Assembly: GCA_963776275.1 (NCBI GenBank)
Contig: CAVZMI010000020.1
Span: 64,001-128,000 of the forward strand
Length of the DNA: 64,000 nucleotides
Direction: 5' to 3'
Source: Ignavibacteriota bacterium
GTDB taxonomy: Bacteria > Bacteroidota > Ignavibacteria > UBA10030 > CAVZMI01
A model generated the notes under the pieces. The model made no database searches, was not told the origin of the DNA, and worked only from the letters and a program-made list of their open reading frames with translations. Position numbers and translations under genes: made by a program. Numbering within the stretch: the stretch's first letter is position 1; the number at the start of each line of letters is the position of its first letter. This document shows, in pieces, positions 19,502 through 48,026 of the stretch.

Positions 19502-19638
19502 AATGTTGCCTCGACTCGCTTTCTAATATGCTTTCTATATCCGCTCGGCACCCTGGCTGTTGATAATTTAAAGTTTCAATAGCCAGTTCCCCGAGCGGAC
19601 TTAAACAGCTATTTCAACAGCTAGTCGAGGGGAACATT
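19502..19638. repeat. Long imperfect hairpin related to the GAGC..GTCGA palindrome family
   Basis: Nested stems cctcgact/agtcgagg, tccgctcgg/ccgagcgga and ctggctgttga/tcaatagccag. Confidence 0.7.
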
Positions 19639-40831: not shown

Positions 40832-43317
40832 ATGCAAAAGCAACGTCTGCATATTGTGATTCGCGGTGCGGTTCAGGGAGTCGGCTTCCGTCCGTTTATC
40901 TATCGCCTTGCCACCGACATGCGCCTCGCCGGATGGGTGATCAATTCTACTCAGGGTGTTCTCATCGAGGTTGAAGGCGAAAGACCTGATCTCGATGAGT
41001 TCATTCTGCGTTTAACGCATGAAAAACCTCCTCGTGCTTTTATCCAGAGTCTGGAGCCGTCACTGCTTGATCCTGTCGGTTTTACATCGTTTGAAATCCG
41101 GGAGAGCGATGACCGGGGTACCCCGAGCGCACTCGTTATGCCCGATATAGCAACATGTCCGGACTGCCTTCGGGAAATATTTGATCCGACAAATCGCCGG
41201 TATCGTTATCCTTTTACAAACTGTACAAATTGCGGACCCAGATTCACAATCATTGAATCACTTCCCTACGACCGGCCTTCAACGACAATGAAGCAATTTA
41301 TCATGTGCGACATGTGCCGGAAGGAATATGAAGACCCGCTAGACCGGCGCTTTCATGCACAGCCGAATGCCTGTCCGGAATGCGGCCCCCACCTCGAACT
41401 CTGGAATATTCAGGGAAATATTACAGCAACGCATTTTGAAGCTTTAAAAACTGCAGCAGAGATGATCCGGTCTGGAAATATTGTTGCCGTCAAAGGACTC
41501 GGAGGATTTCATCTCATTGTCGATGCACGGAACGATGATGCTGTTCTAAACCTTCGCGCCCGTAAACATCATGAAGAAAAACCGTTTGCGGTTATGGTCC
41601 CTTCGCTCGACACCGTAAAAAAGCTCTGTGAGGTCTCGGCACTCGAAGAACGACTTCTCATATCGCCGGAATCTCCAATTGTTCTATTGCAAAAAAGAGA
41701 TGACTATCAAGACTTTCAACTTTCAACTTTCAACCCGAAACTATCGAACGCCGTTTCCCCCGGCAATCCTTATCTCGGCATCATGCTCCCGTATACTCCA
41801 CTCCATCATTTACTCATGAAAGAACTCGGGTTCCCGGTCGTCGCGACCAGCGGAAATCTTTCAGACGAACCTATTTGTATCGATGAACATGAAGCCCTGT
41901 CGCGTCTCCAGCATATAGCCGATGCATTTCTTATACACAACCGGTCCATACTGCGTCATGTCGACGATTCCATTGTACGTATAATGGCAGGCCGGGAGCT
42001 CGTTCTACGACGAGCACGGGGGTTTGCTCCGCTCCCAATTCCAATGCGCGTGTCTGAAATTCCTTCGATGCTTGCAGTCGGCGCCCATTTGAAAAACACC
42101 GTCGCGATCACGGCGGGCAGTAATACATTTATCAGTCAGCACATAGGCGATCTCGAAACACACGAAGCATTGACGGCATTTAAGAATGTGATCGCGAGTC
42201 TGCAGACGCTCTATTCGTTTACACCGACGACAGTAGTGTGTGATGAGCATCCTGATTATCTCTCGACAAAACATGCCCGCAGTATGGGAATCGAGATTCT
42301 TCCGGTTCAGCATCATTATGCCCACATCGCTTCATGCATGGCGGAAAACGAACTGAATGGCAAGGTTCTAGGAGTTTCATGGGACGGAACGGGCTATGGC
42401 CTTGACGGGACAATCTGGGGTGGAGAATTTTTATTAATAGATGAGAACGGATTCAATCGCGTCGCAACGTTTCGTCCTTTCCCTCTTCCGGGAGGCGATC
42501 AGGCAATTCGTGAACCGCGAAGAATCGCCCTTGGAATGTTGTATGCAAAAGCAGGAGACGAAGCATTCAAACAGAACGATCTTGCCTGTATAAAAGCATT
42601 CACACAATCTGAGCTTTCGGTCATTCAGACAATGCTTCAAAAGAAAATCAATTCTCCTTTGACGTCGAGTATCGGACGGCTTTTCGACGGTGTTGCCTCG
42701 ATAATCGGACTTCGACAGCGGACGAATTACGAGGGCGAAACAGCCATGGAACTAGAATTTGCTACGATCCGGCAAGTTACCGATGAATCATATTCTTATA
42801 CTATAGTGGAAGGAAAAACCGATAACCTTCAACCTTCAACTCTCGCCCTGAGCGATCCCGAGCGAGTCCCGCGGTCCGTCCCGAGCGAACCCTGAGCTTG
42901 CTTGCCGCGAGCTCGGTCGAGCGGTCGAAGGGTGTCGAGGGAAGCGGGACGAGTCGAGGGGAAGTCGAAGGGTTATACCTTAAACATCTTTTTTATATAG
43001 ATTGGTTTCCCATGATTGGAGGAATAGTATCTGACCATACTCATGGAATTGCGGTCGGTCATATTTCAACAAAATTCCATAATACATTGACTGAGATTAT
43101 TATTTCCGTTGTAAAAAAAATTCAACAACAACGCGTGGCACTCAGCGGCGGATGTTTTCAAAACAAATATCTTACCGAGAGAACAATCCGGCGTCTTCAG
43201 GAAGAAGGCTTCAAGCCATACTGGCACCAACGTGTGCCGCCGAATGATGGGGGCATTTCGCTCGGACAAATTGCCGCAGCACTTCGACTGAAAAAAGGAA
43301 TTGATAAACTGCATTAA
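40832..43317 (+). pseudogene. hypF: Carbamoyltransferase HypF, split by a nested palindrome insertion (ORFs 40832-42895 and ~42898-43317)
   Basis: GAVQGVGFRP, Zn fingers, KGLGGFHL, QHHYAH and DGTGYG in frame 2; LSGGCFQN and PPNDGG in frame 1. Deleting 42856-42962 restores one frame. Confidence 0.9.
42846..42972. mobile_element. Nested short palindromic (REP/MITE-like) elements inside hypF
   Basis: Successive left halves (ccctgagc/cccgagc) followed by successive right halves (gtcgaaggg/gtcgaggg). Confidence 0.8.
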
Positions 43318-47222: not shown

Positions 47223-47240
47223 TCTGACTTGAGGTATTCC

Positions 47241-47924
47241 ATGGAAATAATTCACACCGAACACATCGAAAAAATATATGACGACGACGGGGTCCCCGTC
47301 CACGCACTCCACAACGTCACATTTTCAATACAAAAAGGCGAATTTCTTGCCATCGCCGGTCCTTCCGGTTCGGGTAAGACAACGCTCCTGAACATTATCG
47401 GTGCACTGGACAAGCCGACAAATGGAGAGGTCATTCTTGACGGCGACAAACTGACTGATAAACAGAAAGGGACTCTCTCAACACTTCGTCTCAATAAGAT
47501 CGGATTTGTATTCCAGGCGTACAATCTTATTCCCGTTCTTTCCGCTATGGAAAATATTGAATTTAAAATGATGCTGTTAAATATCCCTGAGCAGGTTCGA
47601 AGAGAACAATCAATGAAGATCATGGAGGAGCTCGGGATAGCCGAACTGGCCCACAAACGCCCCAATGAGATGAGCGGCGGACAGCAGCAGCGGGTTGCTG
47701 TCGCCCGGGCAATCGTGAATAATCCGCCGATTGTTCTGGCCGATGAACCTACGGCAAACCTCGATTCCGTAACGGCATTTTCACTGATTGATATCATGAG
47801 AAAAATGAATGAAGAAAAAAAGATCACGTTCGTTTTTTCATCACATGATCATCAGGTATTACAGAATGCCCGTCGTGTCATCCTTTTGCGTGACGGCCGT
47901 ATCGAGCAGGATATCGCGCAATGA
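47241..47924 (+). CDS. LolD-like ABC ATP-binding protein
   Basis: GPSGSGKT, MSGGQQQRVA and LADEPTANLD motifs. Confidence 0.95.
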   Translation: MEIIHTEHIEKIYDDDGVPVHALHNVTFSIQKGEFLAIAGPSGSGKTTLLNIIGALDKPTNGEVILDGDKLTDKQKGTLSTLRLNKIGFVFQAYNLIPVLSAMENIEFKMMLLNIPEQVRREQSMKIMEELGIAELAHKRPNEMSGGQQQRVAVARAIVNNPPIVLADEPTANLDSVTAFSLIDIMRKMNEEKKITFVFSSHDHQVLQNARRVILLRDGRIEQDIAQ

Positions 47925-47951: not shown

Positions 47952-48026
47952 ATTCCGTTCCGGCTTTTTACCCTGAGCCTGCCTGCCCCGAGCCTGTCGA
48001 GGGGTCGAAGGGTGTCGGGACGGGAT
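47952..48026. repeat. Three-layer nested palindromic element
   Basis: attccgttccggc...[ccctgagcctg cctg(ccccgagcctgtcgagggg)tcgaaggg]...gtcgggacgggat. Confidence 0.75.

Follow-up and report, generated by a model that had tools for sequence, protein, structure and literature searches.

The hypF locus

The window analysed here is a stretch of 64,000 nucleotides (nt) from contig C20 (CAVZMI010000020.1, positions 64,001 to 128,000) of the genome assembly of an Ignavibacteriota bacterium (GCA_963776275.1), referred to below as G000. It contains a hypF gene that, as assembled, is interrupted by a 127-nt nest of concentric hairpin layers at 42846-42972; coordinates of the hypF frames and of the nest refer to the forward strand. 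According to the list of open reading frames, the upstream hypF frame spans 40832-42895 (687 codons), takes its final ~17 codons from the nest and halts at a TGA at 42893-42895, within the fifth layer. The downstream open reading frame (42898-43317, 139 codons) lies in a different frame and begins at a TTG start inside the nest, with hypF proper resuming at about 42973. In Pfam searches, the N-terminal frame matched Acylphosphatase, zf-HYPF, Sua5/YrdC, HypF_C and positions 1-144 of the 241-position HypF_C_2 profile, and the C-terminal frame matched positions 144-241 of the same profile. All domains expected of a HypF carbamoyltransferase (acylphosphatase, two zinc fingers, YrdC-like and Kae1-like) are present across the two frames, HypF_C_2 being divided at profile position 144 of 241, a split that may stem from an assembly error.

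Alignment with relatives shows what the locus looks like when unoccupied. In a sister genome of the same genus (G001), hypF is an intact frame of 793 codons with 93% protein identity to the HypF of the window, and its DNA aligns to both flanks of the nest at 95-97% identity (97% in the C-terminal part). The window carries two CTTCAAC heptamers (42827-42840) and a T, followed by the inserted sequence and then by TTATACC TTAAAC, where G001 has three CTTCAAC heptamers followed by CTTAAAC and no insert. Relative to G001, the insertion is clean and occupies 42842-42972 (131 nt), that is, a 4-nt leader CTCG (42842-42845), recognized by comparing the empty and the filled site, and the 127 nt of the nest; three substitutions lie nearby. 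A 15.5-kb peat-metagenome contig, ~94% identical to the window, is likewise empty, with 42840 joined to 42977 via CTTCA. A Joint Genome Institute (JGI) contig, also empty at this site, matches G001 without a difference over 827 nt and is therefore not independent of it, and the junction of the nest had no match among the JGI metagenome contigs. Two matches from sequencing runs (X2 and X4) are contigs of 39 and 35 nt that cover L5/L6 with 2 and 5 differences and have unrelated flanks.

A first-pass annotation of the window had suggested aligning hypF from relatives in search of empty and partly filled sites. Empty sites were found in G001 and in the peat-metagenome contig; between the sister genomes, no partly filled intermediates were seen. 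The insertion site is a length-variable surface loop of HypF, in its Kae1-like second subdomain, and the length of this loop differs by tens of residues among 11 hypF genes of the order.

Architecture of the nest

The concentric parse given in the first-pass annotation matches the sequence of 42846-42972, with six layers designated L1 to L6 from the outside inwards. L1 is formed by the arms CCCTGAGCGA (42846-42855) and AGTCGAAGGG (42963-42972), and L2 by TCCCGAGCGA (42856-42865) and GAGTCGAGGGGA (42951-42962). Inside them lie L3, with the arms GTCCCGC (42866-42872) and GCGGGAC (42944-42950), and L4, with TCCCGAGCGA (42879-42888) and GTCGAGGGA (42934-42942). L5, with the arms ACCCTGAGCTTG (42889-42900) and TCGAAGGGT (42925-42933), encloses a CTTG leader (42901-42904) and the innermost unit, L6 (CCGCGAGCTCGGTCGAGCGG, 42905-42924), after which the right arms of L4, L3, L2 and L1 follow in series (42934-42972). 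As had been stated, five layers (L1, L2, L4, L5 and L6) share a core, in which GAGC forms the left half and TCGA the right; a complementary stem of 4 nt closes each of these layers, and a pair search recovers five such stem-complementary GAGC..TCGA pairs within the 127 nt. L3, between L2 and L4, is a plain perfect stem of 7 bp that lacks the core.

The parse holds overall and is imperfect in its details: a 6-nt linker, GGTCCG (42873-42878), separates the left arms of L3 and L4, a lone A (42943) separates their right arms, and the right arm of L2 has one surplus G that its left arm leaves unpaired. The arms of the nest provide just four Watson-Crick pairs each, plus G/A-rich mismatches; judging from their sequence, these G/A-rich stretches, which include the GAGC/TCGA core, could form tandem G.A pairs. 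The longest repeat inside the nest does not exceed 16 nt, and an Rfam search of 42500-43300 returned no family at E-values up to 1.

A dispersed family of hairpin modules

Half-site copies of the same design occur throughout G000 (3.70 Mb, 45% G+C, 96% complete). The family module measures 23-24 nt, comprising a 4-nt leader followed by NNNN-GAGC-(2-4 nt)-GTCGA-N'N'N'N', and this replaces the unit of ~20 nt assumed at first. A genome-wide count gives 71 compact units whose stems are complementary, where seven scrambled cores give 0-1, and 438 stem-complementary GAGC..TCGA pairs no more than 220 nt apart, where five scrambled or swapped cores give 44-156. The core is conserved while the stems covary (CCCT/AGGG 12, TGGT/ACCA 10, CCGT/ACGG 7, TCCT/AGGA 6, with GGTC/GACC and others), and most copies in G000 are preceded by one of the leaders CTTG, CCTG, TTTA or CTCG.

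Copies of the family are found free-standing, in tandem and nested. The tandem arrays have a period of 23 nt, as in the case of C4:18621-18895, where TTTA and the 19-mer CCCTGAGCTTGTCGAAGGG occur five times. This 19-mer is L5 with L6 removed; it has 12 copies in G000, some of them free-standing. L1-type shells of the form CCCTGAGCGA...GAGTCGAAGGG surround other inner hairpins at more than ten other loci of G000, and the double shell of L2 within L1 recurs at C30:22293 and C32:113382. When depth is counted as chains of strictly nested pairs, the hypF nest reaches four, and three further non-tandem loci reach at least four, so that the genome-wide survey of depth suggested for this motif does find other deep nests; two tandem arrays score deeper for trivial reasons. 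A series of paralogues differs by added content: C14:157750 is a 44-nt element, C3:7446 adds a unit in the loop, and C10:15870 adds a further 50 nt. In a comparison of 81 genomes of the order, G000 had the most matches to the motif GAGCTTGTCGA, 52 against 6 for the control. A census of copies within genes (22 of 65 loci spanned by open frames) was left unused, as it mixes chance matches with stop-free GC-rich repeats.

Turnover between sister genomes

The motif GAGTCGARGGG has 30 matches in G001, against 1 for the reversed control, and each was aligned to its counterpart in G000. By our reading of the alignments, about 17 loci had both flanks resolvable, and only three of these are alike in architecture (L147/148, L153 and L167). 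Whole nests of ~40 nt (locus L146), 67 nt (L152) and 99 nt (L155) are present in one sister genome only, and single 24-nt units of leader and hairpin are confined to G001 at locus L162 and to G000 at locus L165; a 28-nt presence/absence case at locus L147 is less clean. At C10:15870, comparison of G000 with G001 shows a conserved outer shell with entirely different content, and the tandem array at locus L150 has many more copies in G000. Beside the family locus L147 of G001, a 7-nt AACCTTA/CCTTAAC run differs by 18 nt between the sisters. The layers of the hypF nest belong to a dispersed family, free-standing, tandem or variably nested, that turns over fast between sister species: at orthologous sites, a single unit or a whole nest can be found in one of the two genomes and be missing from the other.

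In G001, the 99-nt nest lies in frame within a protein gene, to which it adds 33 residues, and it contains the L3 and L4 composite of the hypF nest with the linker CTCTG instead of TCCG. Because this composite is common to both nests, already nested blocks seem to move or be copied together. Moreover, a layer such as L2 cannot slip around existing content, and the hypF stack is therefore better described as a composite placed in the double shell of L1 and L2. The "about six" separate insertions originally envisaged are not required, given that the composite recurs in G001 and the double shell elsewhere.

Structural RNA is affected as well. The RNase P RNA genes of both sisters score 232.7 and 244.4 bits (Rfam gathering score 100). 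In G001 (locus L156, 1317-1800), the helix that follows ACAGAAA, which we take to be P12, is a two-layer family element (CCCTGAGCGA CCCCGAC GAAA GTCAGGGG AGTCGAAGGG), and in G000 (C32, locus L300, 416-891) an unrelated stem-loop occupies the same position.

Occurrence in other phyla and in viral contigs

In a collection with one genome per species, the exact 19-mer CCCTGAGCTTGTCGAAGGG was found in at least 125 stretches, against a chance expectation of ~4 by our own estimate from the size of the collection. The matches listed include Bacteroidota, cyanobacteria, Actinomycetota, Alpha-, Beta- and Gammaproteobacteria, Nitrospirota, Myxococcota, Chloroflexota, Acidobacteriota, Planctomycetota, NC10, Binatia and several groups of the candidate phyla radiation. 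Among viral contigs, at least 126 stretches contain the 19-mer and none contains the reversed 19-mer. The most frequent leaders among the 132 listed genome copies are TTCG (42), GTCA (16), CTCA (9), CGGT (8), CCTG (8) and CTTG (7), and in 53 of these 132 copies an inverted partner lies no more than 60 nt away. Other phyla have deep nests and tandem arrays of 23-nt period too.

In one phage-like viral contig (L209, positions 201-265), CGGT plus the 19-mer occurs in tandem in at least three copies with a 23-nt period, the same build as the array at C4:18621-18895.

Nesting geometry and proposed mechanism

The junctions between nested modules follow a recurrent pattern. In 13 of the 26 distinct direct parent-child pairs of G000, the child, preceded by a YYTG leader, follows GAGC-NTG and stands directly before the TCGA of its parent; this commonest geometry is also that of L5 and L6. 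Three more pairs in G000, plus two at G001 loci, read GAGC-GA, child, GAG-TCGA. Of the 8 relations found in other genomes, 4 place 7-8 nt to the left of the child and 0 to its right, with leaders that are lineage-specific. Nested pairs are co-oriented in 314 cases and opposed in 17, both counts being inflated by tandem arrays. In one opposed case, at C28:91554-91619, TCGACAA precedes the inner nest on the other strand, which by our reading again places the nest at the 3' edge of the loop there. Both the co-orientation and the preferred junction fit the earlier proposal that these elements favour the loops of their own family.

The simplest account of this geometry and orientation is an insertion process that is specific for strand and structure, and which we infer to act on single-stranded hairpins. 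Modules, either alone or as already nested composites, would be inserted or copied strand-specifically into unpaired DNA, preferably at the 3' edge of the loop in a module that is already there (GAGC-NTG^TCGA). Each module would create a preferred target for the next, and stacks would grow inward. We consider it probable that the block in the hypF loop is a lineage-specific insertion of stacked small modules that belong to a dispersed family, and that these modules and their composites are inserted in a strand-specific manner. The evidence bearing directly on this interpretation consists of the insertion relative to relatives, family membership, stem covariation, presence or absence at the level of layers, the preferred geometry and the orientation.

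Several observations weigh against it. Whole nests differ between the sisters without partly filled intermediates, a pattern that en-bloc copying or deletion would explain as well as stepwise growth in place, at hypF too. Half of the parent-child pairs (13 of 26) fall outside the main geometry, and neither an enzyme nor an intermediate was seen. The exact 20-mer of L1 and the L6 unit have no other free copy in G000. A nearest-neighbour DNA fold of 42836-42982 is ordinary, with a minimum free energy of -31.8 kcal/mol against -28.7 +/- 2.9 for shuffles (z = -1.08); 27 of 200 shuffles fold as stably as the nest, and the minimum free energy structure leaves L1 unpaired. Several family copies have heptamer-like flanks, the hypF site itself being a CTTCAAC run; nonetheless, a TRF period-7 array is found no more than 30 nt away in 2 of 100 family clusters, against 48 of 5000 random windows, a strict period-7 flank score picks out 2 of 71 family loci against 2 of 2000 random ones, and an association with heptamers is unsupported genome-wide. 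Finally, the nest is known from one assembly, in which frameshifts affect 5 of 40 compared genes, and details of the nest, its length included, may be in error.

Alternative explanations

The modules might spread without any transposition, through replication slippage, template switching or short-patch gene conversion between hairpins that have common 10-nt arms. We regard this explanation as rather unlikely, even though several observations agree with it: the locus at C10:15870, with the same shell and an exchanged interior, fits conversion between shared arms, composites are common to different loci, tandem copy number changes, the 7-nt run at L147 differs by 18 nt, and no enzyme correlates with the family. 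A physical process alone leaves unexplained the identical 19-mers in many phyla and phages and the de novo appearance of modules at naive sites such as the hypF loop, as well as the constant unit of leader and hairpin and the orientation bias.

The second alternative is that the modules are repetitive extragenic palindromic (REP) elements in the strict sense, mobilised in trans by the REP-associated tyrosine transposases (RAYT) or IS200-like Y1 enzymes of the genome, which cleave hairpins of single-stranded DNA beside a short tag. Such enzymes do exist in G000, which has nine PF01797 matches; two proteins pass the NCBIfam cut-off for RAYT of 80 bits (C12:68627 with 117.7 bits and C38:31598 with 83.8 bits), and none of these genes lies on contig C20, in agreement with the earlier statement that no transposase is in the window. 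The layout of tag and imperfect palindrome resembles that of REPs, as do the 53 of 132 listed copies with an inverted partner within 60 nt, and a GTAG tag precedes 2 of the 132 listed copies in other genomes, forming an inverted doublet (locus L135). Meanwhile, units of CCTG plus TCCGCC...GGCGGA flank two Y1 genes and also nest.

Neither flanks nor co-occurrence link these enzymes to the family. A search for RAYT, Y1 or reverse transcriptase genes flanked by the motif had been suggested, and the Y1 and RAYT genes turn out to be flanked by other repeats, with no reverse transcriptase match. When the flanks of all nine PF01797 matches were scanned, other hairpin types were found; the one match with family-like modules close by, on its upstream side, is C38:31598, whose own flanking direct repeats hold a different palindrome. 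Across the 81 genomes of the order, the presence of Y1 genes and motif excess do not agree: G006, G028, G045, G068 and G079 have no PF01797 match, yet show 10-19 motif matches against 1-9 for the control, while G007, G008 and G015 have 5-7 Y1 matches and no motif. Further afield, a Binatia chromosome that carries the 19-mer encodes a strong RAYT flanked by GTAG-REPs of other sequence, and no RAYT match was obtained in an alphaproteobacterial chromosome of 3.8 Mb that also carries the 19-mer. The likeness to the REP/RAYT system is a resemblance and not demonstrated membership, and mobilisation by these enzymes is in our judgement unlikely.

Other repeats lie beside two of the enzyme genes. The RAYT-like gene at C38:31286-31918 lies between two direct copies of ~55 nt that hold the palindrome GTCGAATTTCCAATTCGAC, as though its own repeat had received the gene or been duplicated by it. 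At C28:53100-53600, a nest of CCTG-led TCCGCC...GGCGGA hairpins, a second nesting family with the same leader, lies upstream of an IS200-like gene.

Spread through an RNA intermediate that is reverse transcribed, which has reportedly been proposed for small dispersed repeats of cyanobacteria, is compatible with the orientation bias and with the presence of elements in transcribed genes and RNase P RNA; the lack of any RVT_1 match in the 96%-complete genome of G000 makes it very unlikely here. That the nest is an assembly artefact, absent from the organism, is hardly credible, for although it occurs in one assembly only, no sequencing run of the source sample was found, its junction is absent from JGI metagenome contigs and the assembly has indel errors, both of its flanks are hypF (so that no contig join is involved), its internal repeats of at most 16 nt fall, in our judgement, below the usual length of assembly words, nests built in the same way occur near letter for letter in the independent G001 assembly (loci L147/148, L153 and L167), and such nests are found in other phyla as well.

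Coding state of hypF

The first-pass annotation attributed the TGA and the frameshift to the inner layers and held that L1 alone is in frame, and its arithmetic is correct: the 131-nt insertion is of length 3n+2, and L1 alone would give 24 nt. Its further statement that the nest splits hypF applies to the gene as assembled and is not established beyond that, since 5 of the 40 compared genes are frameshifted in the same assembly. Of 41 open frames with 200 codons or more, taken from G001 loci and compared with G000, 6 were split over frames in G000, corresponding to 5 of 40 distinct genes, namely hypF, the sole dnaK, a gene on C10, a gene on C23 and the large subunit of a [NiFe] hydrogenase. 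In the case of dnaK (C23:347354-347430), two single-base insertions 76 nt apart relative to G001 break the frame. The hydrogenase large-subunit gene (C20:288716-290246) has one extra G (GGGTGCCCGAT against GGGTCCCGAT in G001), the sole indel in 1701 aligned nt, which leaves frames of 148 and 391 codons. Because a broken single-copy dnaK is not credible biology, the assembly must carry indel errors, and decay of the hydrogenase, which the large-subunit frameshift had suggested as support for a hypF pseudogene, was dropped as an argument given that dnaK is frameshifted too.

One base missing anywhere in 42822-42895 would suffice to give a 132-nt nest in frame. Within this interval, the linker between L3 and L4 (TCCG) is one base shorter than the CTCTG of the G001 paralogue, which is a hint only. 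An error in that one short interval would be uncommon at the observed rate, as would a nest that lies out of frame in a needed gene; whether the frameshift is real or an assembly indel is about evenly balanced. With a frameshifted dnaK in the same assembly, a broken hypF should not be taken at face value.

Relation to known repeats

Among published repeats, the small dispersed repeats (SDRs) of the Nostocaceae come closest, and the present family is at most of the same kind and does not belong to a named family. In Nostoc punctiforme and other Nostocaceae, Elhai et al. are said to have described in 2008 eight such repeats (SDR1-8) as hairpins of 21-27 nt that are self-nested and often lie in runs of heptamers, and they reportedly argued that these are the smallest mobile elements. 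Like SDRs, the family in G000 has units of 23-24 nt with a 19-20-nt hairpin, a tandem period of 23 nt, single-unit indels of 24 nt, and copies inside copies of themselves. Unlike SDRs, which were compared by description only, it has a GAGC..TCGA core and a 4-nt leader and extends over many phyla and phage contigs.

Two further systems resemble the family in individual respects. Rickettsia palindromic elements (RPEs) insert in frame into coding genes and are translated as extra surface segments; they are single units of ~100-150 nt not known outside Rickettsia. The 99-nt nest that is read in frame in a G001 gene recalls them, and unlike an RPE it is a stack of 23-nt modules. Transposition of IS200/IS605 elements by the Y1 enzyme TnpA is strand-specific, guided by hairpins, placed beside a short tetranucleotide and free of target duplication. 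IS200/IS605 elements encode TnpA or rely on it, and the hairpins of their left and right ends are distinct. They provide a mechanistic parallel to the orientation and geometry of the family, and differ in that the present module has one hairpin of 19-20 nt and no linked gene.

REPs and their derivatives (BIMEs and REPINs; Nunvar 2010, PMC2817692; Bertels and Rainey 2011, PMC3116915; Di Nocera 2013, PMC3733652) share with the family short imperfect palindromes, a 5' tag and high copy number, as well as frequent inverted doublets in other phyla and the presence of RAYT genes in G000. Unlike in REPs, the leader is not GTAG or CGTC, GTAG preceding only 2 of the 132 listed copies in other genomes; copies are nested and not alternating, some lie inside genes, and no RAYT is flanked by them. 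In the account of REPs by Di Nocera 2013 (PMC3733652), the word "nested" is absent. One paper (PMC5861425) reports no SDR-like repeats found outside the Nostocaceae. The hairpin elements and GC clusters of mitochondrial genomes (PMC2800124) are very small GC-rich repeats that invade AT-richer genomes and have no known enzyme; those are organellar, and their sequences are unrelated to the family in G000. Literature searches with the 12-mers GAGCTTGTCGAA and TTCGACAAGCTC returned unrelated papers only, no paper with the GAGC..TCGA core or the family was found within the searches made, and searches on nested palindromic or heptanucleotide repeats returned only known papers on REPs, heptamer simple sequence repeats and mitochondrial hairpins.

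Significance

A broader proposition is possible, and we advance it tentatively: the GAGC..TCGA modules might constitute pan-bacterial, phage-carried and self-nesting mobile DNA of 23-24 nt that has no element-encoded or family-specific transposase and is inserted at the 3' edge of loops by a single-strand DNA activity of the host or phage. If this were true, they would be the smallest mobile elements known, with the widest host range, tolerated even in essential genes and RNase P RNA. If modules move as the comparisons suggest, they would serve as a cheap and fast source of insertions for protein loops and RNA helices, cause apparent pseudogenes and spurious small open reading frames in annotation, and mark DNA exchange between phages and very distant bacteria. 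The junction GAGC-NTG^leader-hairpin^TCGA is regular enough to provide a concrete signature for searches of deep sequencing data and a defined substrate for biochemistry. Within the family, the hypF nest is an unusually deep example, and it contributes a comparison between sister species, a junction rule and a warning about assembly quality.

Other family-related features of the window

A second member of the family in the window is a two-layer nest at 47971-48012 on the forward strand, preceded by a TTTA leader (47967-47970) and composed of CCCTGAGCCTG, CCTG, CCCCGAGCCTGTCGAGGGG and TCGAAGGG, in which a CCCT shell encloses a CCCC unit. It is intergenic, lying after the open reading frame at 47229-47924 and within a further imperfect hairpin. 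At 19589-19632, the window also holds a ~44-nt repeat (CCAGTT CCCCGAGCGGACTTAAACAGCTATTTCAACAGCTAGTCGAGGGG AAC) that recurs at C18:214249, C22:4007 and 4181, and C26:29681; its GAGC/TCGA ends surround a longer conserved interior, and its flanks are conserved at about five loci.

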